Assembly (NCBI GenBank): GCA_035531115.1
Contig: DATKTP010000204.1
Span: 4,155-68,154 of the forward strand
Length of the DNA stretch: 64,000 nucleotides
DNA from: Candidatus Deferrimicrobium sp.
Lineage (GTDB): Archaea > Asgardarchaeota > Lokiarchaeia > Helarchaeales > HEL-GB-A
Direction: 5' to 3'
Below the pieces are notes generated by a model. It saw only the letters and a program-made list of their open reading frames with translations. It did not search any database and was not told the origin of the DNA. This document shows, piece after piece, positions 3,798 to 31,406 of this stretch. A program made the position numbers and the translations under genes. Position 1 is the first letter of the stretch. Every line of letters starts with the position of its first letter.

Positions 3798-4901
3798 TTA
3801 TATATCTTTAATTAATTTTAAATAGGATATCGATATTCTTGTTTTGTTTTGAGCGGCAGCAAGGATTTTTTGATTATCTAAAGCAGAGATTTGAAATTCA
3901 TTCTGAATGAGGTTAGCGAGATTGACGATTAAAACTTGATAGGAGCAATTAATTCCGAAATTCATTGAAATAATATGCTGTAAGGTCTTTGTTTCTGCGA
4001 ATGTAAATGCTACTGCCGTTTTTTTTGTGATTGTCTTCACTTCAATGAGTTGAATCGTCTTTAAATATTCACAGTTAATTTGATAATCAATAATTATTTG
4101 ATTGAACCTGCCATCAGAATTATCACTAAGAATATATGGAATTGCTTGAGATAGCGGAAGCATTTCTCCATTAATATCTATATGTGAAACATGAGAACCG
4201 GGGGGTAGGAAATGAAAATAATCGGTAACCTTTTCTTGTTCATCAACAGTAAGGTCGCGTTCATTCTTTAGCGTTGGCTTATATTCTTCCACTAACGGGC
4301 TAATTTCATCCCATTGACTCATATTCTCATTTTCAGATTGGTTTTCACCAATTTTCATTCTTTCTAAAAAAATCTTCTGCAATTTTCGAAGCAAAACGGG
4401 ACAATTTACATCAATACAATGTTGTGGGATCGCAGGATACGATTTTAGTTGGGCTCGAATGTTTTCGGGTGGATTACAAAAGAAACTAAGAAGGTCAAAA
4501 GATATATCGGCACCTGTTCCCGGTGGTCGACTTTTTAGTAGATTCTCGGAGTAACTGTTATCTTCTTGTGGAATTTCAACTCCGTCCTTTCCCACTAGGA
4601 AATATTGCCCCCGCCGCCATACCATCCTATATTCTGGATTAAATTCAACTCTATCCTTTCTTACTGCCAAACTAAGAGATTGTAATGAATGGATTACTTG
4701 ATATGGAATTAGAAGAGCGTGTGGACGTCCGTAATACACTTTTACAAGTGTGGCACTCCAGGGAATTAGAAAGCCTACTTCATTTACCTTTTCACTGAAT
4801 TCTTGAGAGAGATAGCGATATGCTATAAATTCTCCAAGATCGCCTATTAGTCCTGATGGTATTTTGAAATTGAACTTTACTGTGATTCTATTCCGCTCCA
4901 T
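3798..4901 (-). CDS. hypothetical protein with weak PD-(D/E)xK-nuclease-like elements
   Basis: 367 aa. N-terminal 'GDLGEFIAYRYL' and C-terminal 'IQLIEVKT' resemble the helix-1 Glu and E-x-K elements of restriction-endonuclease-fold proteins. The match is weak. Confidence 0.55.
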   Translation of the reverse strand: MERNRITVKFNFKIPSGLIGDLGEFIAYRYLSQEFSEKVNEVGFLIPWSATLVKVYYGRPHALLIPYQVIHSLQSLSLAVRKDRVEFNPEYRMVWRRGQYFLVGKDGVEIPQEDNSYSENLLKSRPPGTGADISFDLLSFFCNPPENIRAQLKSYPAIPQHCIDVNCPVLLRKLQKIFLERMKIGENQSENENMSQWDEISPLVEEYKPTLKNERDLTVDEQEKVTDYFHFLPPGSHVSHIDINGEMLPLSQAIPYILSDNSDGRFNQIIIDYQINCEYLKTIQLIEVKTITKKTAVAFTFAETKTLQHIISMNFGINCSYQVLIVNLANLIQNEFQISALDNQKILAAAQNKTRISISYLKLIKDI

Positions 4902-5661: not shown

Positions 5662-6687
5662 ATGTATTATTGCAATATTTGTAAAAAGGAGATCACGAGA
5701 GGAGAATTCTTTTATTCAATGGATAAGTTTGGTAGGGCCCTTTGCAGAGCGCATCAAGAAGCGGAAAGAAGATCTCAAGGGATCTCAGGTCAAAATACAG
5801 AACCGGCAGGTGTAATGGAGGAGCTAGAACCGTCCGAATCTGCTTCTGAAGTGATAAGTGCCTCAGATGAAACCACTAACGATGCGGCGCCAAAGAGCCG
5901 TTGGAGATCGCTCGGCAATACCTTTGTAAAAATGGGCAAAGGGATCGTAAAGGGCGTACGGAAAATTGCGGATTCTTCAAAGAGACGCACTCAAACGCGT
6001 AAATGGAAAGAATCGATTCTTCGTCGGATGACAATAACTCAATTGGAACAGCTCTGTTTTGAGAAAGGAGTCAGTACCAAAAAGAAGGTATTAGAGGAAG
6101 ATAAACGCTCTGATGAGTTCTATTGGAAAGAGGTAAAATGTTCACAAGGCGATCTCGTTGCCCGATTGAAGAGCAAAGTCCCATTAGATATCATAATTTC
6201 CTTCGCTGAGCGGAATTATGTAAATATAAAAGATATCCTTGTCGATATACACCGCACGGAAGCCGCATGGGAATTAAAAGCCCTCGCTGAGAGAAGCAAT
6301 AAAAATGGGGGTAGTATATTACTAGAACTTGAAAAGATAATACGAGAATTCGTTCCTTTGCGCCGATATGATCAAGAACTGTATTACCAAGATACGCTTG
6401 CCCAGTTTTTGCGATCTAAGTTTCATGATACGGAGATAGAAGTCTCTCGCGGTTCTACGCGCCCTGATATTGTCGTGAAAGGCATCGCTATTGAGGTCAA
6501 AGGGCCGACCAGTAATAGAGATTTAGATACCATTGCTAATAAATGCCTTCGATATAGACGATACTTCCCAAGCGGGTTGATATGTGTCCTATTTTCTGTC
6601 AATGTTACTCCACAGTACTACGAAGATTGGTTAAAGGCAATGCAGGAGACGCACCCAGACGTGAGAGTCATAAAGATTCCCCTCTGA
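5662..6687 (+). CDS. zinc-ribbon + PD-(D/E)xK nuclease-like protein
   Basis: 341 aa. N-terminal 'CNICKKE...CRAH' Zn-ribbon. C-terminal 'FLRSKF...EIEVSRGSTRPDIVVKGIAIEVKG' gives the E...D...E-x-K restriction-endonuclease-fold motif. Confidence 0.7.
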   Translation: MYYCNICKKEITRGEFFYSMDKFGRALCRAHQEAERRSQGISGQNTEPAGVMEELEPSESASEVISASDETTNDAAPKSRWRSLGNTFVKMGKGIVKGVRKIADSSKRRTQTRKWKESILRRMTITQLEQLCFEKGVSTKKKVLEEDKRSDEFYWKEVKCSQGDLVARLKSKVPLDIIISFAERNYVNIKDILVDIHRTEAAWELKALAERSNKNGGSILLELEKIIREFVPLRRYDQELYYQDTLAQFLRSKFHDTEIEVSRGSTRPDIVVKGIAIEVKGPTSNRDLDTIANKCLRYRRYFPSGLICVLFSVNVTPQYYEDWLKAMQETHPDVRVIKIPL

Positions 6688-7040
6688 AAGAATTGATAAT
6701 TAGTCTGTTTTTATCTTTACACCTTTTGCATTTTTCTTTAGTTTCTTTAAAATTTCCTTACTCCTAGCGTCTAGTGGATTATCCTGAATTTTTAAAATAA
6801 CTAGATTCGAAAGCTGGGCAAAGGACTCGATAAATCTGGAACGGGATCTTGTGGTAGTACTCTTCGCCTCGGTAGGCTTGAGAAAAAAATAGCTATATTA
6901 GGCGATGATGCAAAAGATAATATTTTAACCTATTTATAACAAGAATAAAATATTTAGAAGGCAAAAAATAGAAAAAAAATATTAAAACTATTTAATGAGG
7001 GAGACCTTATCTACGATTCTTCAGTAAAAATCTAGTAAAT

Positions 7041-8135
7041 CTAACTTTCACTAGACATTTCAACTTTGGAAAGCAAATCATCTAAAATAGTTTGTGATTT
7101 AGAACTATTATTTTTATTTTTATTGGACTCAGCATCAAAAGTAGTAGATTTATCAGAAGATACCTCCGGCTTGATTGAATTAGTGGCAATATCTGTTTTT
7201 TGATTTTCAGGAATTTGGATATTATATTCCATTGAGACAACTGCTTTTTCAGCCATATGTTCTAAATGAGTTAGAAATCTATCTAGTTTGCTTTCTGACC
7301 ATAATTCATTAACTATTGCTTCTATATTATAATTCAATTTGACATTCAAGCTATTTTCTGAATCTAAGCTGGGTAATAATTTTTCAACAGGTGCTGGACT
7401 TTCCTCTGAAAACTTTATTTCAGTATTAGTATCGGGGGAGGGCACTTTAGTTTCTATTTCTTCCTCATGAATAGCGTTTTCTTCATGTTTTTCATTTTCA
7501 GAGGAATGATTAGCAGGATTTTTGAAATCTATCAATTCAAATGAGTCACCGAATGCTCGGATTAATCTAGCTTCAACACAAAGATCAATCCAAAATTTAG
7601 TAGTTACATCGAAGAAGTCATCGTCTTTTATTTCTATATCGGACTCAAGCAATTTCAATCGTAATTTCTCAGAAAGCCCCTTTAAAGTACCTTTACCATC
7701 TGGTTCATTTACAACTAATCCTTTTATAAGCTCGGGAATCGGTTGAGATTCAATCAATGCTCTAAGATCAGTACTTGCATCTGCCCCAAAAATCCATTGA
7801 TGGATCATATTACGTGTCTCCAATTTCCGGTCATAGTAAATTGTCTCACCACTTTTTTTGCGTGTAAGGAAATTTAAATTCACTAAGTAGTTCAATATTC
7901 GTGTAACAGTTTGAGGTCCTATACCTGACTTATCTGAAATTTCTTTTGGGTTCATAGCGCGTTTTTCCTTGCCTAAGGTCATTAATATGGTTTTTGCCTT
8001 GGGCCATGTTATAGATTTGGTCGAAGGTAATTTAATTTGAGATTTTATGGTGGTTTTTTTTATAGCCTTGGTAGAAGTACCACCGGAACTCCCACCAGCA
8101 GGCTGTGTAGGTAAAGTTTGTGTAATTTTTGACAA
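7041..8135 (-). CDS. winged-helix DNA-binding protein with acidic/Ser-rich C-terminal half
   Basis: 364 aa. 'MNPKEISDKSGIGPQTVTRILNYLVNLNFLTRKKSGETIYY' is a typical wHTH. Divergently oriented to the AAA+ operon. Confidence 0.65.
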   Translation of the reverse strand: MSKITQTLPTQPAGGSSGGTSTKAIKKTTIKSQIKLPSTKSITWPKAKTILMTLGKEKRAMNPKEISDKSGIGPQTVTRILNYLVNLNFLTRKKSGETIYYDRKLETRNMIHQWIFGADASTDLRALIESQPIPELIKGLVVNEPDGKGTLKGLSEKLRLKLLESDIEIKDDDFFDVTTKFWIDLCVEARLIRAFGDSFELIDFKNPANHSSENEKHEENAIHEEEIETKVPSPDTNTEIKFSEESPAPVEKLLPSLDSENSLNVKLNYNIEAIVNELWSESKLDRFLTHLEHMAEKAVVSMEYNIQIPENQKTDIATNSIKPEVSSDKSTTFDAESNKNKNNSSKSQTILDDLLSKVEMSSES

Positions 8136-16961: not shown

Positions 16962-19436
16962 ATGGCTCAGTTTATGCTTCCAAAACGGTATAATTTCAAG
17001 GAAATTGAACAGAAGTGGATCCAGTATTGGAAGGAGAAAAATATTTACAAATTTGACATCAATGCGAAGGATAAAGAAATTTATTCCATCGATACGCCCC
17101 CTCCTTTCACTTCTGGTACGCTGCATATGGGACATATTCTGAATCATACATGGATTGATTTAGTAGCGCGCTTTAAACGAATGAGCGGCTATAATGTCTA
17201 TTTTCCTCAAGGCTATGATTGCCATGGATTACCTACAGAGTTAAAAGTAGAAAAAGAATTCAAAGTATCCAAGGATGATCGCGAAGAATTCCTGAAAAGA
17301 TGTATTAAATGGACCAATGAAGCAATAAAAAAGATGACATCCCAATTTGATAAGATCGGCTATTCTACAGATTGGCAGTTTACCTATAGGACTATGGACG
17401 AGCGCTATTTGAGAATGGTTCAAAAAACGCTCTTATTTTTTTATGAAAGAGGCTGGTTGTTTCTAGGGGATCATCCCATCCACTGGTGTACGCAATGTCG
17501 GACTGCTCTTGCTAAACAGGAAGTCGGATATATAGATACGAAGGGGAAATTCTGGTATATTAAATTGCCTTTAACTGATAATTCAGGCTATGCCACAATC
17601 GCTACAACGCGCCCTGAACTGATGCCTTCTTGTATGGCAGTTTTAATCCATCCAGATGATAATAGATACTATCATCTATCCCAAAAGAAAGTGAAACTCC
17701 CGATTTTTAACCGTGAAGTTCCTATAATTCAGGATGCGGCAGTTGATATGACCGTCGGAACCGGGATTGTTTATGTTTGCACCTTTGGTGATGAGACCGA
17801 TATTGCATGGCAAAAGAATTATAAACTCCCCATTATCATTTCCATTGATGAGCAGGGAAGAATGACAGAAGCCGCTGGGAAATTTAGGGGGATGCCTATT
17901 GATGAAGCCCGGGAAACAATTGTGAATGACTTAAAAGAAATGAATTTATTAGAAAAAGAAGAAGATATCACGCATAGAGTTATTGTCCATACTGAAAGAA
18001 GTTCTTGTTTAACCCCTATTGAATATTTACCTATAAAACAGTGGTTTATTTCCATTCGCCCCTTTAAGGAAGAAATTCTGGACGCGGCTTATAAGATGAA
18101 TTGGTTTCCCCCTACCATGATTAAACGACTGGAAGATTGGGTAGAATCCCTTGAGTGGGACTGGGTTATAAGTCGGCAGCGCGTTTTTGGAACGCCGATT
18201 CCATTTTATACATGTGAAAAATGTAGTAATGTCATTCCAGCAAAGGATGCGGATATCCCAATTGATCCACGAGTGGATCCGCCCCCACTTTCCAAATGTC
18301 CAAAATGCGGAGGCAAAATTATAGGAACTGTCGATGTCTGTGATTGTTGGATCGACTCCAGTATTACTCCACTCATTATTTCAAAATGGTCCGAGGATGA
18401 GAATTTCTTCAAAAAAACCTATCCTAGTTCTATGAGACCTCAAGGCTATGAAATCATTCGCACGTGGGCGTTCTATACAATTTTTCGATGTCTGAAATTA
18501 ACAAATCTCCCTTGCTTCCGTGACCTTATGATAAATGGGATGGTTGCAGGCACAGATGGCAGGAAAATGAGTAAAAGTTACGGGAATGTTGTTGAACCCG
18601 AAAAGCCTCTTGAAAAATTTGGTGCTGATGCCCTCAGACAATGGGGTGGATTAGGTACTTTGGGTGATGATTATCCCTACAATGATAAAGAAATCGAATA
18701 CAATCTCAAATTTTTAACTAAACTCTGGAATGCCTGTAGATTTACATCCGCTCATTTAAACAATTTTGACATAAAGAAAATCACTGAAGCAAAAATAGAA
18801 TTGACGCCTATCGATGAGTGGATTTTAAGTAAATTAAATAACGTTATCAAAATTGCTACTGAGTCCTTTACCACTTACAATTTCCATACAGGCCTCTCAG
18901 CCTTTAGACAATTTTTTTGGCATGATTTCTGTGATAATTATTTAGAAGCAGTAAAATATCGGCTATATGCAGAAAAAATTGACCCTGCTCAAATAATAGC
19001 GGGGCAATATAGCATCTATAATGTGATTTTGGATTCCCTCAAAATATTTGCTCCAATCGCCCCTTTTATCGTTGAAGAAATTTATCAGTCTATTTATAAG
19101 AAAGATCTCCAGATCCCGAGCATTCATCTTAATTCTTGGCCAACCCCCCGCTATAAGGTGCGCGAACAACTCGACCAAATTGGGGCATTATCAATTAAAA
19201 TCATAGGTGAATTCCGAAAAGAAAAATCCAATAAAGGCATCCCTTTAAATACTCCCATTAAAAAAGCAATTATTCAGATTGCAGGTGATCGAAAAGTGTT
19301 TGATCAAATTGAAAAGGATATTTCAGGTACCCTTAAAATAGACGAACTCATTATTTCTCATGATCCGCCTGCTCGCTTTTTTCATAATAGTTTCGAAATG
19401 CCCGAAGAAAAGATTATAATCCATTGGGAATTATAG
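16962..19436 (+). CDS. valS: valyl-tRNA synthetase
   Basis: 824 aa class I aaRS. 'PPPFTSGTLHMGH' (HIGH), 'KMSKSYGNVVEP' (KMSKS), and a CP1/editing insert. Size and motifs fit archaeal ValRS better than IleRS or LeuRS. Confidence 0.8.
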   Translation: MAQFMLPKRYNFKEIEQKWIQYWKEKNIYKFDINAKDKEIYSIDTPPPFTSGTLHMGHILNHTWIDLVARFKRMSGYNVYFPQGYDCHGLPTELKVEKEFKVSKDDREEFLKRCIKWTNEAIKKMTSQFDKIGYSTDWQFTYRTMDERYLRMVQKTLLFFYERGWLFLGDHPIHWCTQCRTALAKQEVGYIDTKGKFWYIKLPLTDNSGYATIATTRPELMPSCMAVLIHPDDNRYYHLSQKKVKLPIFNREVPIIQDAAVDMTVGTGIVYVCTFGDETDIAWQKNYKLPIIISIDEQGRMTEAAGKFRGMPIDEARETIVNDLKEMNLLEKEEDITHRVIVHTERSSCLTPIEYLPIKQWFISIRPFKEEILDAAYKMNWFPPTMIKRLEDWVESLEWDWVISRQRVFGTPIPFYTCEKCSNVIPAKDADIPIDPRVDPPPLSKCPKCGGKIIGTVDVCDCWIDSSITPLIISKWSEDENFFKKTYPSSMRPQGYEIIRTWAFYTIFRCLKLTNLPCFRDLMINGMVAGTDGRKMSKSYGNVVEPEKPLEKFGADALRQWGGLGTLGDDYPYNDKEIEYNLKFLTKLWNACRFTSAHLNNFDIKKITEAKIELTPIDEWILSKLNNVIKIATESFTTYNFHTGLSAFRQFFWHDFCDNYLEAVKYRLYAEKIDPAQIIAGQYSIYNVILDSLKIFAPIAPFIVEEIYQSIYKKDLQIPSIHLNSWPTPRYKVREQLDQIGALSIKIIGEFRKEKSNKGIPLNTPIKKAIIQIAGDRKVFDQIEKDISGTLKIDELIISHDPPARFFHNSFEMPEEKIIIHWEL

Positions 19437-19447
19437 TACAAATCAGT

Positions 19448-19520
19448 GGGCCAGTAGATCAGCTGGAAGATCGCAAGATTCGCATTCTTGAGGCCGCGGG
19501 TTCAAATCCCGCCTGGTCCA
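19448..19520 (+). tRNA. tRNA-Ala (anticodon CGC)
   Basis: Manual cloverleaf, 73 nt. Acceptor GGGCCAG/CTGGTCC with the Ala identity pair G3:U70. D stem GATC/GATC. Anticodon arm CAAGA-TTCGCAT-TCTTG. T arm GCGGG-TTCAAAT-CCCGC. No encoded CCA. Confidence 0.95.
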
Positions 19521-19596
19521 CTATTTAAATATCTTTAGTAGAATGAAATTTTAACTCTAAAGAAAATAAATTCTCTATAATAGGTAATATCGTAAA

Positions 19597-20853
19597 ATGC
19601 AAGCAAAATACGAAACGACCGTAATTAATCTGATGCAAGCTCTACCTTTTATTAACGCAGTTGTAGTGATTGAGGGAAACGCTGATATTGTTTATTCAAC
19701 GGCTAGTTGGGATATTAAAAAAGATGTTGCGAGCGTCATTTCTAACTGGTTATCTAAGAATGCTGAATCCATAATAATTAATGATATAATCTATACAATT
19801 CGCCTCTGCACGAGCGAGCGATTAGTTGCAACCTCAATGAGCGGGGAGGGGCATATTGTCGGCGCGAAAGATCAAAAAAGAATAATAATTGCTCAACTTG
19901 CGCAAGATGGAATTATAGGCTTTGCATATATTGAGATGGCTAGAGCCTTAATATTATTAAGCGCTAATAAAGTATATCAAGAACAAAAAGCAATCAAAAT
20001 TAAAGAGACCCAACTCCCATCAAAGAAACAACAGGATTTCAATAATGAGAAAATCGCTGTTCCTTTCACTGCCCGCCTCATGGCATATTATCGTGCTCTA
20101 GAATATAAACGGGATTCCCCACTCATCGTTGATCCTTATGCAGAGCGCCTCGCGGGTGATATGACTTCATATCTCAAAGAACATATTCGTTATTCCGAAA
20201 TGGATTATCCAATTGTGCGTTCATATTACATAGAAGAGAATTTATTAACGCCTTGGTGCAATAAGCATCCGAGATCGCAAATAGTTCTTTTAGGGTCCGG
20301 TTTAGATTCGCGGGCTTATCGATTCACCCCCCTTCAAATTAATACCCATACAATCTTCGAGGTTGATTTCCCAAGTATAATCCGCTATAAAGAGGAGCTT
20401 TTGCACAGTGAAGAACCGTTATGTGGTCTTATTCGTTTATCTGCAGACCTCTCCAATCCCGATTGGATGCCTCAACTTAAAAAAAGCGGATTTTCTAGTA
20501 ATATTCCCACTTTCTGGGTATTAGAAGGCCTTGTCTATTATATGGATCGAGAAGTGGTTGCTTCTCTACTTGCTAAAGCAGCAGAGATTAGTGCAAAATC
20601 CAGTCAAATTTTCGTGGATATCTTACAATACTCAAGATGGCTCTCTGATTCTTCTTCATTAAATGGGATTATGGCGGGTCCTTTTTCCACACATTTTAAA
20701 TGGGGGCTTGATATAAAAGATGTTCCATCGTTCTTTTCTAGCGCTGGTTGGAAGGTTTCCTGTTCATTTGCCGATCTGCATGATCAAGGACGCGATGTGG
20801 GGCAGAAGGGGATGATTTTTATTTATGGAGTACGTGCGTATTTAGGTGATTGA
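19597..20853 (+). CDS. fusion protein: N-terminal profilin-like (or roadblock-like) domain + LCMT/O-methyltransferase-family SAM methyltransferase
   Basis: 418 aa. C-terminal ~260 aa: 'FTARLMAYYRALE...IVDPYAERLAG', 'VLLGSGLDSRAYRF', 'FEVDFPSII', 'PTFWVLEGLVYYM' (leucine carboxyl methyltransferase family pattern). N-terminal ~125 aa: 'ASWDIKKD...IIINDIIYTIRLCTSERLVATSMSGEGHIVGAKDQKRIIIAQ', reminiscent of profilin. Confidence 0.75.
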   Translation: MQAKYETTVINLMQALPFINAVVVIEGNADIVYSTASWDIKKDVASVISNWLSKNAESIIINDIIYTIRLCTSERLVATSMSGEGHIVGAKDQKRIIIAQLAQDGIIGFAYIEMARALILLSANKVYQEQKAIKIKETQLPSKKQQDFNNEKIAVPFTARLMAYYRALEYKRDSPLIVDPYAERLAGDMTSYLKEHIRYSEMDYPIVRSYYIEENLLTPWCNKHPRSQIVLLGSGLDSRAYRFTPLQINTHTIFEVDFPSIIRYKEELLHSEEPLCGLIRLSADLSNPDWMPQLKKSGFSSNIPTFWVLEGLVYYMDREVVASLLAKAAEISAKSSQIFVDILQYSRWLSDSSSLNGIMAGPFSTHFKWGLDIKDVPSFFSSAGWKVSCSFADLHDQGRDVGQKGMIFIYGVRAYLGD

Positions 20854-20854
20854 G

Positions 20855-21598
20855 ATGGATAATTCGCATAAAAATCCGGTCGATGAACCGACGAACATGA
20901 AGGAAAGTACAGATAAATTCTCAAAGATCTTCTTCTTTATCATTCCATTTACGGTGCCTCTTATAGTTACCTTAATGACATATTTATTTTATCCCGTGAC
21001 ACTTGCTTCTAATCTTGTCTGGCTCCCCCTCCTGATTATTTATTGGGTAACAATCTGGTGTTTTACATTTCTTTATAGATATAAACGTGGGGGTGTTTTT
21101 AACAAAGAACGCTATAAATTAACGTTAAAATTAAAAGGAGACCGTTTATGGTTACAATATTTACTTGTTTATGGACCATTTGTCTACTCCATTCCATTAT
21201 TTTTTATTAATTATGCTACAGAATTGTCAGTTAATATGTTCTTAGTAATTCTGCTTGCGTCTATCATAAATGGCCCCTCCGAGGAGACCTTCTGGAGAGC
21301 GTGTTTAGACGATGCTGGAAAAAAAGCGGGAGTTTCTGAAAAGAAGCGCCTCATATTTGCACCAATTGCTTTTGCACTTTGGCATACCGCGTTTATCATT
21401 CATCTACTTCCATGGGATCAAACCTGGATTCTATGGTGGGCTGGAACAATGTTGATGACATGGTCAAGTGGGATTATATGGATGTGGGTTATGCATCGCT
21501 CTGGTAGATTAATGCCTCAAACCATTTATCATGCGTGTGCAAACTTTTTAAGCATATTTCCATTATTTCTTGTCACCGTTCTTCATATTTATTTTTAA
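20855..21598 (+). CDS. CPBP-family (CAAX/Abi) intramembrane glutamic protease
   Basis: Motifs 'SEETFWR' (EExxxR), 'FALWH' (FxxxH) and 'YHACAN' (HxxxN) in a polytopic membrane protein. ATG at 20855, 1 nt after the upstream stop (the track start is GTG 20846). Confidence 0.85.
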   Translation: MDNSHKNPVDEPTNMKESTDKFSKIFFFIIPFTVPLIVTLMTYLFYPVTLASNLVWLPLLIIYWVTIWCFTFLYRYKRGGVFNKERYKLTLKLKGDRLWLQYLLVYGPFVYSIPLFFINYATELSVNMFLVILLASIINGPSEETFWRACLDDAGKKAGVSEKKRLIFAPIAFALWHTAFIIHLLPWDQTWILWWAGTMLMTWSSGIIWMWVMHRSGRLMPQTIYHACANFLSIFPLFLVTVLHIYF

Positions 21599-21885: not shown

Positions 21886-22620
21886 TTAAAAAATTGGGGA
21901 TTCTTGCGGTGGATAATATAAAATTCGTCCTTCTCCTGCTAATTGTTCCCAAAGTTGTTCTGCTTTTACATATGATTCTTTTTCCAACTTATCTTCGATT
22001 CCTGAGATAACCGCTCTGATTTTTTTTCTTTCCAATTGATCTTTTCTTCGCATAAGGAGAGCTCGTTCAAAAAAGGGCTTCTGGACCTTATCATTCTCGT
22101 CGATCCCGACAATACCCATTCGTTTATGATAGTTTATACATTCTTCATAGAGTTTTTTATTTTCGACTGATTCGCTGCGTTCTTCCATCCAATGATATAT
22201 ATATCGTGAAATAGTAATCGAATCAAGAGTAGTGTCGTCCGAAGACCCCCACAATTGATTCAAATATCCCTCCAATTGCTTCCCTATCTCATCAAGTTCC
22301 TTATTATGGTAAATAACAAAAGTAGACGCGGTATTCAGGACTGAAAAGGTCTCAAGGAGATCCCAAAACGTCAGTTTCACAATTTTCGAGGGTTCTTTCT
22401 TGTTTTCCTCTGCTTCATCTTCAAGTATAATAGAAAATTCAAAGGGCATAACAATAATTGCTTTCTCAAAATACCGATACTTAAAAAACGGTTCTGCTAT
22501 ATAGATTAAGTTACCATCCGTTTCATCTAGTGTGGGGATAAAATGAATAAATTTATTTTTCAAGTTCTCAAACACCATTATTTTAGGATTTTCCGTTCTA
22601 ATTCGAAAGCTTGATCCCAT
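21886..22620 (-). CDS. hypothetical protein, overlaps and follows the TGT-like gene
   Basis: 244-aa ORF. Its start overlaps the last 43 nt of the upstream TGT-like gene. No recognisable motifs. Confidence 0.6.
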   Translation of the reverse strand: MGSSFRIRTENPKIMVFENLKNKFIHFIPTLDETDGNLIYIAEPFFKYRYFEKAIIVMPFEFSIILEDEAEENKKEPSKIVKLTFWDLLETFSVLNTASTFVIYHNKELDEIGKQLEGYLNQLWGSSDDTTLDSITISRYIYHWMEERSESVENKKLYEECINYHKRMGIVGIDENDKVQKPFFERALLMRRKDQLERKKIRAVISGIEDKLEKESYVKAEQLWEQLAGEGRILYYPPQESPIF

Positions 22621-23576
22621 GTTTTTCGATAATATTTAGAATCCAATTGATTAATCTCATTTTCAATAGTTTGAGCTAACTCCTCCCTATTCTTGCACCC
22701 TTGTATGGCTTTTACCTTCTCTTGCCAAATTGCCAAGTTATGCTTCACCCGCGCAAGCCGATTCGCGTTAAACTCTTCAATGATATTTCCCTCGTAAGTT
22801 CTACAAAACTCACAGGTGCACTTCCACTCTTTCAAATCTCTCACTTTCAATCCCTTTCCAGTAGGTGTATAGATCGTACCCCGCGCGAGCGCGGAAGAAA
22901 CCGGCGTACTTCCATCAACCGAAGTCGCTCCTAAGTACGCAATAATTGGAAGCAAATATAAACTCGAAAGCCCCGAGAGATGGAAGGGTAGATCCTCCAA
23001 GACGCTCCTTGCTCCAATTGTCAGCTCAAAAATTGTTTGCAAGCCTTTTTTCCGGATCTTAGTATCCCGTAAAAACTCAGCGACGCCGCGACAGAAACAT
23101 TCATGCCCTATATCCCGAGCTTTACGAAACCAAACCCGGGCTTCCTCTGTTGTGGAAACTTCTAAAGAACTATAAATGGGGACCTCGACCGTTTTATGCT
23201 CTATCGCCCAGTTCGCATTATCTAGACATTGTTGGATGGCCCGCTCCCTGACTTCTTTCGCGATATTCCAGTATTCATAATTCGTCAAACTCGCAGGGGT
23301 GTTTAGGGACATAAACCCCACCGTTTTCTTAGGTGTATAAAATTTCTCCTGATTTTCTAACACAATTGCCGGCGTTCGCTTCGTGGGATCAATATTCCAC
23401 CAATTTCCTGAATGGATAAAGTGAGTTCCTTTATACTCCTTAAGTAATTTAATATTTTTCGGGTTACACTTTTCATACCCCATTACGATTGGCATCTCTG
23501 AATCTAAATTAGGAACAAATGTTACAAAAAAAGTGAAATTCATTGTTAAACACTCTTTTCTTTTCTTCAAATTCAT
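22578..23576 (-). CDS. tRNA-guanine-transglycosylase-fold protein (TGT/DpdA-like)
   Basis: 332 aa. 'PFHLSGLSSLYLLPIIAYLGATSVDGSTPVSSALARG' matches the TGT 'hLfGvG...GvDxFD...Ptr.ar.G' core including the catalytic-Asp position. Zn site 'CTCEFC...VKHNL' (CxCxxC...H). The start may be the second Met at 23543. Confidence 0.7.
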   Translation of the reverse strand: MNLKKRKECLTMNFTFFVTFVPNLDSEMPIVMGYEKCNPKNIKLLKEYKGTHFIHSGNWWNIDPTKRTPAIVLENQEKFYTPKKTVGFMSLNTPASLTNYEYWNIAKEVRERAIQQCLDNANWAIEHKTVEVPIYSSLEVSTTEEARVWFRKARDIGHECFCRGVAEFLRDTKIRKKGLQTIFELTIGARSVLEDLPFHLSGLSSLYLLPIIAYLGATSVDGSTPVSSALARGTIYTPTGKGLKVRDLKEWKCTCEFCRTYEGNIIEEFNANRLARVKHNLAIWQEKVKAIQGCKNREELAQTIENEINQLDSKYYRKTWDQAFELERKILK

Positions 23577-28058: not shown

Positions 28059-29423
28059 ATGATTACTATGGATATTTTTATTAAAAATTGTGAAAAGGTC
28101 TATACTCCTGAAGGGTTTAAAGCTTTGAATATTATTATTGAGGAAGGAAAGATCCGCGAGTTTACATCTGAACTAGTATCTGAAGCGTATGATCGGATTA
28201 TCGATGCATCTAACAAGCTAATTATACCTGGTATCATTGATTTACATGTTCATTTTTATGAGGGACGCGAAACTTGGTTTTCCGGAACAAGTGCTGCAGC
28301 GGGTGGTGGAGTCACAAGTGTATTTGAACAGCCATTCTCAGATCCTCCCACCCTATATCCTCAGGCTTTGAATATTAAAATAAAGCGTGCCACAAAAGAA
28401 GCTTTAATCGATTTCGGGTTCCATGGTGGTGCTACTCCAATTAATATTGACGAAATCGATGACCTTGCTAAATCTGGCGTGAAAACTTTCAAGATTTTCT
28501 TACCAGAAACTTCATATGACTTTCCTGCCCCTGAGGATGATGATTCTTTTCTAGATCTACTCCATGCCATTAAAAAAGCAGAGAGCATAGCGTTGATACA
28601 TGCCGAAAATCGCACCGCTATCAAACTCGGGCAGCAGAAGGCATTGGAAAATGGGAAAATCCAACCCAAAGATTTCCCTGCTGCCCGCCCACCAATGGCG
28701 GAAATTGAAGCAGTTTCACGCACACTAATGCTGGCAGATTTGGCTGAATGTCCAGTTTATTTCGTCCATCTGAGTACAGGCACAGCAGGTGAGATTATTT
28801 CTACAGTGAAAAATAAACAACGTGTGTATGCAGAAACTTGTCCTCAATACCTCCTATTTGACGAATCGGTGTTTGTAGAAAAAGGTCCCTATGCCCGAGT
28901 CATCCCTCCAATGCGTCCTAAGGCGGAAGTGAAGAAATTATGGGGATGTCTAAGCAGCGGCATCATCGATGTCATTGCGACGGACCATTGCGCCTATCCC
29001 AAAATTGAGAAGGAACGGGGATGGCACAACATCTTTTTAGCCAATAACGGGATCCCAGGACTTGAAACCTCCCTTCCTCTAATGCTTACCCAAGTGCATC
29101 AAAATCGTTTAGATTTGGAACGACTTATCCATCTAATGAGCGTCAATCCGGCGAAAATTATGGGTATATATCCTAAAAAAGGGTGTATTCAACCAGGAAG
29201 TGATGCAGATCTAACTCTTATCGATTTCAACCAGAAGACGAAGATAACGATTGATGAACTCCACACTAAGAGTGAATTTACGCTCTATGAGGGATTGGAA
29301 GTGCAGGGGGTCCCTGAAATGACTATTTCTCGGGGAAAAGTAGTGATGGAAAATGGGTATCCGGGCGAGATTATCAGCAAATATAAGGGGCAGGGCGAAT
29401 TTTTAAAAATTCAAGAAGTATGA
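28059..29423 (+). CDS. cyclic amidohydrolase (dihydroorotase/allantoinase/hydantoinase family)
   Basis: 454 aa. Metal ligands 'PGIIDLHVHF', 'FKIFL' (carbamyl-Lys region), 'IHAEN', 'YFVHLS', 'VIATDHCAY'. Confidence 0.85.
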   Translation: MITMDIFIKNCEKVYTPEGFKALNIIIEEGKIREFTSELVSEAYDRIIDASNKLIIPGIIDLHVHFYEGRETWFSGTSAAAGGGVTSVFEQPFSDPPTLYPQALNIKIKRATKEALIDFGFHGGATPINIDEIDDLAKSGVKTFKIFLPETSYDFPAPEDDDSFLDLLHAIKKAESIALIHAENRTAIKLGQQKALENGKIQPKDFPAARPPMAEIEAVSRTLMLADLAECPVYFVHLSTGTAGEIISTVKNKQRVYAETCPQYLLFDESVFVEKGPYARVIPPMRPKAEVKKLWGCLSSGIIDVIATDHCAYPKIEKERGWHNIFLANNGIPGLETSLPLMLTQVHQNRLDLERLIHLMSVNPAKIMGIYPKKGCIQPGSDADLTLIDFNQKTKITIDELHTKSEFTLYEGLEVQGVPEMTISRGKVVMENGYPGEIISKYKGQGEFLKIQEV

Positions 29424-29428
29424 GAACT

Positions 29429-29596
29429 TCAAGAATTATATAATTCTTTAACAATTAAGACTAACAGTAATAAAAGTATGACTTGAGCTGGAATAAATAT
29501 TAAGGAACTGAACCCCATCATAATATCTTGAAGGATAAAAATGATTCCAATTCCTAATGAAAAGATTAATCCAAATTGAAATAAAGCCTTGCGCAT
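29429..29596 (-). CDS. possible small membrane protein (55 aa)
   Basis: ATG-to-TGA ORF 'MRKALFQFGLIFSLGIGIIFILQDIMMGFSSLIFIPAQVILLLLLVLIVKELYNS' with two hydrophobic helices. Below the track cutoff. Confidence 0.35.
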   Translation of the reverse strand: MRKALFQFGLIFSLGIGIIFILQDIMMGFSSLIFIPAQVILLLLLVLIVKELYNS

Positions 29597-29720
29597 CTTC
29601 AATTCTCCCTGCGAATAATTTTTCTAATCATGGATTACAATTTGGCTGGGAAAAAGTTTTTCCTTCTTAATAGCCATATAACTTATATCTTTTATAAAAG
29701 TTAATTATCTAAAAAAATAG

Positions 29721-30077
29721 GTGAGTTATATGCAAAAAGATGATATAGAACGCCTTTGGGATTTAGAAGCCGAGAAAAATAAGCGCCTGTTTAAAAAGGA
29801 AGTATCACAAGACGAATTACATTTCACTGCTCTTGATTATAATGATGAAATCATTATCCTTCGGAGTAAAATTCAAGGGATCTCAGAAACTGGGATTATT
29901 GTGATCATTAATCCTGACCGGGCCGAAAAAGATGGAGAACTTTTCCAACTTATTGACCTTGCCTCTTTAAAATTGGCAATCTTTACGTATAATCTCTCTG
30001 AAGAAGTGATTCTCGAACTTCTAGAAATTGTGGAAGAACCTGAAGAGTCTGAAGATATTGAATATGTTGAAGATTAA
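29721..30077 (+). CDS. hypothetical acidic protein
   Basis: 118-aa ORF with an acidic tail 'EEPEESEDIEYVED'. Lies 12 nt upstream of the MutY-like gene. Confidence 0.5.
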   Translation: MSYMQKDDIERLWDLEAEKNKRLFKKEVSQDELHFTALDYNDEIIILRSKIQGISETGIIVIINPDRAEKDGELFQLIDLASLKLAIFTYNLSEEVILELLEIVEEPEESEDIEYVED

Positions 30078-30089
30078 TGGCGTTATTCA

Positions 30090-30809
30090 ATGGATATCCC
30101 AATAGAGCAAGAAAAGATCCATTTCTTCCAAAACACCCTCATCCTTTGGTTTAAAAAATATGGGCGTGATTTACCTTGGCGTAAAACACGAAACCCCTAT
30201 CATATTCTCATCTCCGAGTTGATGTTACAGCAAACGCAGGTCATACGTGTTGAAAAAGAATACTATTTTCAATTTCTAAATAAGTTTCCATCCATTCAGG
30301 ATTTAGCTAATGCCTCCGAAGAGGACGTCCTTAAAGCATGGGAGGGGCTGGGCTATTATAATCGCGCTAAAAACCTGCATAAAATTGCACAAATGATCGT
30401 CTCGAACTATGACGGAAAATTCCCTGAGGACTATAATCAAATTATAAACCTCCCAGGGATCGGTAAATATACCGCGGGTGCAATTCTCTCCTTTGCCTTC
30501 GAGCGCGATTTTCCGATCGTTGACACCAATGTCGAACGGATTGTAAAAAGAATTTTTCTCTACAAATATAAAATCCCATCTCCTGCGAAGAGAGAAAAAA
30601 CCATTTGGCAAATCTCCGAACAGATTTTACTTAAAAGGGACGCATGGACCTTTAACCAAGCGATTCTAGATTTTGGTGCGCTCATCTGTATCGCACAAAA
30701 ACCCCGCTGCGCAAAATGTCCTATGCGCCCTATCTGTCAATATTTCCAATCTAAAATTTCAAAAAAAGGAAGTATCGTTTATTGGACGAAATCCCCATCA
30801 TCAAAGTAA
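30090..30809 (+). CDS. mutY: A/G-specific adenine DNA glycosylase (MutY-like, no NUDIX-like C-terminal domain)
   Basis: 'LPWRKTRNPYHILISELMLQQTQV', HhH-GPD 'LPGIGKYTAGAILSFAF...VDTNV', and Fe-S loop 'CIAQKPRCAKCPMRPIC'. Confidence 0.85.
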   Translation: MDIPIEQEKIHFFQNTLILWFKKYGRDLPWRKTRNPYHILISELMLQQTQVIRVEKEYYFQFLNKFPSIQDLANASEEDVLKAWEGLGYYNRAKNLHKIAQMIVSNYDGKFPEDYNQIINLPGIGKYTAGAILSFAFERDFPIVDTNVERIVKRIFLYKYKIPSPAKREKTIWQISEQILLKRDAWTFNQAILDFGALICIAQKPRCAKCPMRPICQYFQSKISKKGSIVYWTKSPSSK

Positions 30810-30839
30810 AATTCAAATTTATCTACATTTTGGGCAATT

Positions 30840-31292
30840 TCAGGGAATTGCTATTGCGACTTCGCTGAAAATGGCGGGATTTTGAACAATACTTACTAAC
30901 ATTTTTCCATAAATTTCCTTTTTAGCTTTGCAAACACGTGCAAAATCATCTGGCCATAGCGCAATTATTTCATATCTACCTTCAGCTATTTTAATAAAAA
31001 GAAACCCGCTTTTCATATCTTCGTTAGCAACGCTGGCTAAAATAATTCCGACCGTATTGATTGCTGGTTTCTCCCCTGCTGAAGATTCAACATTTTTTAC
31101 CTTATGTATGGTTTTATAGTGCGACTTATTCTTAAGATTCCATTTTAAACCATCTATATACCTTCTATTCAAGTTGGCTTTTCCGATGATTTCCATTGAG
31201 TCAAAAAAGGTGAGAGTTTCTTCATTACCTTTCCCTAGTTCTTCTCTTTCCAAAGTTATATTCCATGTCTTTGCCATATCTTTTCCTTCCAA
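30840..31292 (-). CDS. hypothetical protein
   Basis: 150-aa ORF with no recognisable motif. Confidence 0.5.
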   Translation of the reverse strand: MEGKDMAKTWNITLEREELGKGNEETLTFFDSMEIIGKANLNRRYIDGLKWNLKNKSHYKTIHKVKNVESSAGEKPAINTVGIILASVANEDMKSGFLFIKIAEGRYEIIALWPDDFARVCKAKKEIYGKMLVSIVQNPAIFSEVAIAIP

Positions 31293-31406
31293 TAAGTTAA
31301 TAATTCAAATACTAATTATTTCTCGCCTTTTATAAAACCTCTATTAAGTTATATTTATACCTTTGTCAGACTACTGACTTAATTTGATTATTATTAGACC
31401 ATATTA

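Follow-up and report, generated by a model that had tools for sequence, protein, structure and literature searches.

The profilins of Asgard archaea are well described as free-standing proteins (Akil & Robinson 2018; Survery et al. 2021, PMC8410842) of 120 to 150 residues. They are a main line of evidence for actin regulation in the archaeal relatives of eukaryotes and have so far been studied as small free proteins only. Here, we describe a gene from a member of the class Lokiarchaeia (Candidatus Deferrimicrobium sp., order Helarchaeales; NCBI GenBank assembly GCA_035531115.1), which encodes what is, by sequence and modeled structure, a profilin domain joined to an S-adenosylmethionine (SAM)-dependent methyltransferase of the LCM family. 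The gene lies at positions 19597..20853 on the plus strand of a 64,000-nucleotide stretch of contig DATKTP010000204.1 (positions 4,155 to 68,154, forward strand), which is referred to as the window.

The described relatives of the methyltransferase half are of two kinds. The mycobacterial TIGR00027 proteins ML2640c (PDB IDs 2CKD and 2UYO) and Rv0731c (PDB ID 6ID6) align with the fusion enzyme in all SAM-binding motifs, but each of them consists of a single domain, with a length of about 300 residues and without a profilin or helical accessory domain, whereas the fusion protein has two domains. The eukaryotic LCMT1/PPM1 enzymes (PDB IDs 3IEI, 3P71, and 1RJD), which methylate the C-terminal leucine carboxyl group of the phosphatase PP2A, share the LCM family (Pfam ID PF04072) and presumably the chemistry, in which a carboxyl group is converted to its methyl ester. 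Their similarity to the fusion enzyme is weak and confined to the SAM core, and the PP2A-binding lid and the phosphatase substrate find no support in the fusion.

Domains of eukaryotic signature proteins (ESPs) are extensively shuffled in Asgard archaea (Liu et al. 2021, 10.1101/2020.10.19.343400). The methyltransferase fusion fits this pattern, in which Roadblock, longin, and profilin-group domains occur in lineage-restricted architectures that are foreign to eukaryotes. Unlike the general shuffling of ESP domains, the pairing of a profilin with an LCM methyltransferase is not mentioned in the literature that we searched. What appears to be new is a conserved, lineage-restricted architecture built from two known families, with a predicted function. 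A conserved profilin domain that is hard-wired to an enzyme offers a concrete handle on further roles of profilin-type modules.

The N-terminal domain belongs to the Asgard profilin family

The open reading frame (ORF) starts with ATG and runs unbroken over 418 residues. An initial annotation, made from the letters alone, had read it as a separate N-terminal alpha/beta domain followed by an LCM-family methyltransferase, and the peptide that it quoted is present in the translation. This division holds, with matches to PF04072 and TIGR00027 in the C-terminal part and a confident structure model for the N-terminal part. The features of the protein are as follows.

19597..19971, plus strand: profilin-fold domain, residues 1-125 (AlphaFold2 model, Foldseek, phmmer against PDB sequences)
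19780..19863, plus strand: best-conserved block common to the fused domain and actin-binding Asgard profilins, with IYTIR (62-70), ERLVATS (74-80), and GEGHIVG (83-89) (alignment to 5ZZA, clade consensus comparison)
19900..19950, plus strand: loop and start of the C-terminal helix, with AQDGIIGF and YIEMARAL (64-sequence alignment, consensus comparison)
19972..20061, plus strand: flexible K/Q/E-rich interdomain linker, residues 126-155 (model confidence below 50 from residue 132, gap-rich alignment columns)
20062..20853, plus strand: LCM/TIGR00027-family class I SAM-dependent O-methyltransferase domain, residues 156-418, and stop codon (PF04072, TIGR00027, alignment to ML2640, PDB ID 2CKD)
20629..20640, plus strand: YSRW loop, residues 345-348 (homologue alignments)

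Residues 1-148 are not recognized by any Pfam or NCBIfam model. The phmmer search against the PDB sequences nevertheless yields the Asgard profilins, with the Odin protein (PDB ID 5ZZA; E value 9.6e-10) followed by those of Thor (PDB ID 7PBH; 2.2e-6), Loki profilin-2 (PDB ID 5ZZB; 8.9e-4), and Loki profilin-1 (PDB ID 5YED; 4.4e-3). The AlphaFold2 model of the domain, predicted with 63 orthologues as input, is an alpha/beta structure with a mean predicted local distance difference test (pLDDT) score of 89.9 and a predicted template modeling (pTM) score of 0.85. Its secondary structure according to DSSP (H2-15, E19-26, E30-34, H41-52, E59-61, E64-71, E75-80, E86-91, E95-101, H107-122) runs from a helix through two strands, a short helix, and five strands, which include the profilin three-strand motif, to the C-terminal helix. 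This is the topology of a profilin, in which the last helix packs against the first (PMC10933270).

The initial annotation had left open whether the domain is profilin-like or roadblock-like and had proposed a fold search. In the Foldseek search against the PDB, profilins fill ranks 1 to 29, led by the Odin, Loki-2, Loki-1, and Thor structures (E values from 2e-9 to 1e-5, template modeling [TM] scores of 0.7 to 0.8). The best match is 5ZZA_P, with an E value of 2.1e-9 and a TM score of 0.82 when normalized by target length and 0.71 by query length; eukaryotic profilins of yeast, Acanthamoeba, and plants appear from rank 7. Roadblock structures are found only from rank 30, with an E value of 3.7e-4. 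Dimerization of the roadblock type runs through a long central helix, and in profilins the three-strand motif replaces half of this helix and contacts actin (PMC10933270). In our model, the central helix is short (residues 41-52) and the three-strand motif follows it, and a Roadblock/LC7 (MglB-like) identity is ruled out. The phmmer matches, the Foldseek ranking, and the three-strand motif therefore resolve the two options to profilin, and residues 1-125 are, judged from sequence and model together, a true profilin of the Asgard type.

The fold, the topology, and the three-strand motif are the same as in the solved Asgard profilins (PDB IDs 5ZZA, 5YED/5YEE, 5ZZB, 7PBH, and, for Heimdall, 6YRR). 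In the structural alignment, the Odin profilin is 29% identical to the fused domain. The motifs NWD, G-x-K-Y, ERL-x-AT, and G-x-G-H-I-V are common to the Asgard profilins and the fused domain. The described profilins differ in being free-standing, whereas the fused domain is the N-terminal part of an enzyme and falls in a distinct paralogue clade that is expanded in Loki lineages. Within the fusion clade, D104, G105, and E113 are invariant in an alignment of 64 sequences. The linker of about 30 residues varies among orthologues in both length and sequence.

The C-terminal domain is a predicted methyltransferase of the TIGR00027 branch

The C-terminal domain matches the Pfam LCM family over residues 161-327 (E value 1.9e-32; 113.1 bits, cutoff 22.3) and the NCBIfam family TIGR00027 over residues 158-396 (E value 2.3e-41; 142 bits, curated cutoff 93.55). 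The best solved relatives are ML2640 of Mycobacterium leprae (7.3e-16) and Rv0731c of M. tuberculosis (1.1e-13). The SAM-binding motifs are VLLGSGLDSRAYRF (230-243), FEVDFP (254-259), SADLSNPDW (282-290), and FWVLEGLVYYM (306-316), and all four are invariant or nearly so among 34 aligned homologues. The class I motifs, namely, the G-x-G-x-D loop, the acidic residue after beta2, the D-L/W motif, and E-G-L-x-x-Y, are all intact and align motif by motif with ML2640. On account of the family matches, the intact motifs, and these closest relatives, the domain is a credible candidate for an active methyltransferase of the bacterial-type TIGR00027 branch. A further YSRW loop is specific to the profilin-fused enzymes, which hardly vary at S, R, and W (64-sequence alignment), and is found in none of the related enzymes with a helical domain, which are described below.

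Human and yeast LCMT1 are matched with E values of only 6.4e-6 to 1e-5 in single-sequence searches and 1.1e-7 with a profile, in each case over about 50 to 130 residues of the SAM-binding core. By these comparisons, the C-terminal domain is not an LCMT1 orthologue, and the analogy to PP2A methylation implied in the initial annotation is unsupported, because the enzyme is far closer to ML2640 and Rv0731c. The characterized members of the LCM/TIGR00027 families, LCMT1, TYW4, and TcmP, methylate carboxyl groups to methyl esters, and by analogy with these members the fusion enzyme is predicted to esterify a carboxyl group with a methyl group.

The fusion is conserved in a minority of Lokiarchaeia and has a single origin

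Among the best 120 homologues, 69 carry the profilin domain ahead of the methyltransferase, at 45 to 80% identity to the window protein. All close homologues come from Asgard archaea, where they are deposited under names such as Promethearchaeota, Helarchaeota, and Promethearchaeia, and the fusion is found in about 15 named metagenome-assembled genomes (MAGs), including a Helarchaeota MAG. In the databases, they are labeled "TIGR00027 family" or "class I SAM-dependent methyltransferase," and PF04072 is the sole domain precomputed for them, so that the survey of homologue architectures, also proposed in the initial annotation, finds the N-terminal domain without any database annotation. The two-domain architecture is real, and we regard this as practically certain: about 70 independent metagenomic or MAG sequences carry the two-domain ORF, so that the fusion is the product of neither chance nor misassembly.

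When 201 genomes of the phylum were scanned in six frames, the full-length architecture was present in 6, all of them in the class of the window. The fusion occurs in a minority of Lokiarchaeia. Most genomes of the class are without the enzyme and encode instead a protein of about 205 residues, whose profilin domain is 45 to 52% identical to the fused one. In other Asgard families, the methyltransferase is present but lacks the profilin part.

The methyltransferase-fused domains group in a single clade (support 98/89) within a tree of 122 profilin domains; the few unlabeled rows in that clade are fragments or fusions that the motif filter missed. The tree of the methyltransferase domains likewise places the profilin-fused enzymes on one side of a single branch (Shimodaira-Hasegawa-like approximate likelihood ratio test [SH-aLRT] support 99). 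Since each tree gives one clade, the fusion arose, or was swapped in, once. We also tried to root the methyltransferase tree with distant Asgard LCM paralogues. This places the root inside the helical-domain group and makes the profilin form derived, but the outgroup branches of about 9 to 10 substitutions per site are too long for this rooting to be trusted.

The profilin domain alternates with a helical accessory domain

The same methyltransferase, at 55 to 65% identity, is found in Hod-, Heimdall-, Thor-, Odin-, and Hermodarchaeota and in some Lokiarchaeia. These homologues have, instead of the profilin, a domain of about 150 residues at the N- or C-terminus, which we call type B (e.g., P0092 [L004:5001-5510], P0091, P0096, P0112, and P0120), and some have no extra domain. 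The predicted structure of the type B domain is an all-helical bundle with a pLDDT of 90.9. It has no Pfam match, and the fold search yields no PDB match at an E value below 1 (best E value 1.0); the domain therefore gives no functional clue. It is almost exclusive to this methyltransferase, as 15 of the 17 matches in the 201 genomes lie in ORFs of 421 to 463 residues, and it is an undescribed dedicated accessory domain of the Asgard enzyme.

Since the enzyme of other lineages bears this helical domain, which is unrelated to profilin, at its N- or C-terminus, or bears no extra domain, the profilin domain is an exchangeable accessory module on a conserved catalytic core. A strict mutual exclusion of the two forms is ruled out by two MAGs (L028+L057 and L030+L059), each of which encodes a profilin-fused copy and a second copy without the profilin; the forms can therefore coexist.

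Other fusions within the profilin paralogue clade

An exhaustive search with residues 1-148 yields 90 representative proteins, including short profilins and several fusions. The Loki-expanded paralogue clade that contains the fused domain is set apart (support 96/94) from the canonical short profilins, and the solved actin-binding profilins of Odin, Thor, and Loki-2 group with the canonical clade, together with a 126-residue profilin encoded in the genome of the window. Nearest to the methyltransferase-fused domains are the TrmB-fused profilins and the profilins that end in a helical tail.

At least 10 representatives join the profilin to a TrmB-type winged-helix regulator (P0131, P0141, P0145, P0150, P0164, P0171, P0173, P0178, P0196, and P0133), one joins it to Sir2 (P0149), and in two a Ras-family GTPase is followed by a C-terminal profilin (P0128 and P0152). 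Further paralogues occur with a MIT domain (P0197) and with a zinc ribbon (P0176). The genome of the window has four profilin-domain genes, namely, the fusion, the canonical 126-residue profilin (contig C91), and genes for proteins of 802 and 740 residues. The former of these two is a coiled-coil protein (contig C1, about 28946-31351, reverse strand) and the latter is composed of repeated winged-helix modules (contig C150), and both end in a C-terminal profilin domain after a long proline-rich tract. The combination of a proline-rich tract and a profilin recalls the logic of the formin FH1 region and profilin.

These sister fusions (the helical-tail proteins of about 205 residues, the TrmB, Ras, and Sir2 fusions, and the 740- and 802-residue proteins) belong to the same paralogue family as the fused domain and usually have a flexible or proline-rich linker. 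They differ from the methyltransferase fusion in the partner, which among them is an enzyme in the Sir2 fusion only.

Possible functions of the fusion

The accessory profilin domain is likely to be a targeting or regulatory module rather than a part of catalysis. We base this role on the conservation of the core, the exchangeability of the accessory domain, the disordered and variable linker, and the identity of the domain as a bona fide profilin. The methyltransferase is the conserved catalytic core common to the Asgard classes, to which a profilin domain of the Asgard family is tethered by the flexible linker of about 30 residues. In the mechanism that we favor, the profilin domain would dock the SAM-dependent O-methyltransferase on an actin monomer or the barbed end of a filament, or on another profilin ligand, and this docking would confine methylation to the actin cytoskeleton or place it under its control. 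Docking on actin or another profilin ligand, with such an effect on methylation, falls only slightly short of an even call.

The likeliest partner of the profilin domain is actin, an assignment for which our doubt nevertheless somewhat outweighs our belief. The genome of the window encodes a lokiactin (E value 5e-133; contig C170, 29081-30187, minus strand) with the C-terminal sequence ...VVHRCF and two actin-related proteins. The blocks that the fused clade keeps best, G-x-K-Y, [ED]RL-x-A-[ST], G-x-G-H-I-V, and P-D-G, are the ones kept in the canonical actin-binding clade, to which the crystallized actin-bound profilins of Odin and Loki belong. They are located in the three-strand motif and in the loop that precedes the C-terminal helix. 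These strand motifs, common to the fused domain and the actin-binding profilins, make actin targeting plausible. The further fusions within the paralogue clade, to Sir2, TrmB, and Ras, are what would be expected of a general adaptor.

Several observations count against actin targeting. The Profilin family (Pfam ID PF00235), a model built on eukaryotic profilins, does not match the window protein at an E value of 1 or below (gathering score 25 bits), and relatives of the fused domain reach 18 to 24 bits, below that cutoff. The paralogue clade stands apart from the profilins with known actin binding, which may have been lost in it. No actin-related gene was found as a conserved neighbor in the loci surveyed (46 related loci with all-against-all clustering of the neighboring genes, and the loci L001-L004 and L009-L013). 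ML2640 and Rv0731c are reportedly thought, in the structural paper on ML2640, to act on small or hydrophobic molecules and not on proteins. Apart from these observations, a profile of the 122 Asgard profilin domains gives no meaningful alignment with human profilin-1 either, so that the eukaryotic actin-contact residues cannot be mapped by sequence.

One could imagine that the Lokiarchaeial paralogue is a portable actin-sensing or actin-docking adaptor that couples the LCM methyltransferase, the Sir2 deacylase, TrmB transcription factors, and Ras GTPases to actin. The site at which profilin binds, the cleft that separates subdomains 1 and 3 of actin, lies beside the C-terminus of actin, and LCM-type enzymes make methyl esters of C-terminal carboxyl groups; the fusion could therefore methylate the C-terminus of actin or an actin-bound partner. 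We consider this extended proposal unlikely. To our knowledge, there is no known profilin-guided methylation system for the actin C-terminus. If the domain does bind actin, the fusion would be the first actin-targeted methyltransferase built on profilin, and together with the TrmB, Ras, and Sir2 fusions, it would hint that cytoskeletal state was wired to modification, transcription, and signaling before eukaryotes.

A possible but doubtful alternative to actin targeting is that the paralogue-clade domain no longer binds actin and is a generic regulatory or interaction module, which serves dimerization, the sensing of a ligand or lipid, or the binding of a proline-rich or GTPase partner, on a methyltransferase for small molecules or lipids. 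The distinctness of the clade from the tested profilins and the promiscuity of the domain (fused to TrmB, Ras, Sir2, MIT, and a zinc ribbon) are in line with this, as are the closeness of the enzyme to ML2640 and Rv0731c and the service of related folds (roadblock, longin, and GAF) as such modules. ESP domains are, moreover, heavily shuffled in Asgard archaea (10.1101/2020.10.19.343400), and two lineages have a membrane hydrolase gene downstream of the fusion (CPBP in the window, DUF4184/YdjM in L018-L022). However, the fusion clade keeps the actin-facing strand blocks of the canonical Asgard profilins, some of them invariant, and the three-strand motif takes the place of the dimerizing central helix of the roadblock type (PMC10933270). 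If the domain does not bind actin, the profilin fold would have been re-used as a general adaptor, and caution would be due in counting each "profilin" match as actin regulation.

The remaining explanations concern the substrate and the integrity of the gene. That the enzyme corresponds to LCMT1 in Asgard archaea, with the C-terminal carboxylate of a phosphatase similar to PP2A as its target, is suggested by the Pfam family name and the weak LCMT1 matches; with those matches spanning the SAM-binding core only, far better scores for ML2640 and Rv0731c, a score above the cutoff of the bacterial-type TIGR00027 family, and no phosphatase gene as a conserved neighbor, we judge it highly improbable. 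Very unlikely as well is a CAAX-like processing pair, in which the adjacent Rce1-like CPBP protease would cleave a substrate and the fusion would then methylate the carboxyl group of the new C-terminus. The close spacing of the two genes and the PEMT/ICMT-like and Arf/Ras GTPase genes that flank the orthologue in L002 and L003 would fit such a pair, but a CPBP gene neighbors the orthologue in none of the 46 related loci and in none of L001-L004 and L009-L013, the adjacency being unique to the window. Each neighboring gene family is found in 6 of the 46 loci at most, i.e., the fusion has no conserved gene partner there, and since these genomes are rich in CPBP proteases and small GTPases, a chance adjacency is likely. 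The link to small-GTPase biology that the initial annotation had raised has no support for this protein. An artifact, be it through chimeric assembly or through the merging of two neighboring genes, has a negligible probability. Nothing was found in its favor; the genome is a fragmented MAG (282 contigs, 82% complete). The reading frame is unbroken, the same architecture recurs across independent samples and assemblers (NCBI, JGI, ENA, and Logan), and the two domains give congruent single-clade phylogenies.

Genomic context

The window is AT-rich, with a G+C content of 31 to 45%. The gene order is valS (16962-19436), tRNA-Ala (19448-19521), the fusion gene, the gene for the Rce1-like CPBP protease, and tRNA-Ile. 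Two features flank the fusion gene directly.

19522..19596, plus strand: AT-rich upstream stretch between tRNA-Ala and the ATG, with the TATA-like elements tttaaata and tctataata (sequence reading)
20846..21598, plus strand: Rce1-like CPBP intramembrane protease gene (Pfam ID PF02517, E value 3.3e-12)

The AT-rich upstream stretch suggests that the fusion gene probably has its own promoter. The likely start codon of the CPBP gene is the ATG at 20855, 1 nucleotide past the stop codon of the fusion, with an AGGTGA ribosome-binding-like site at 20843-20848 within the 3' end of the fusion gene. The CPBP gene is predicted to be a co-transcribed context and not a conserved partner of the fusion.

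In one subclade of five loci (L018-L022, e.g., L020:6399-7046), a gene for a DUF4184/YdjM-type membrane hydrolase lies directly downstream of the fusion, which makes it a second and different membrane hydrolase beside the fusion after the CPBP protease of the window. In L002 and L003, the gene for the PEMT/ICMT-like membrane methyltransferase lies upstream (3900-4775, minus strand) and that for the Arf/Ras small GTPase downstream (6529-7041, plus strand), an arrangement that is not kept elsewhere. Further along the window, an ORF of 332 residues (22578-23576, minus strand) has a weak match to the C-terminal part of tRNA-guanine transglycosylase (Pfam ID PF01702, E value 0.044), and it overlaps with an ORF of 244 residues (21886-22620, minus strand) that has no family match.

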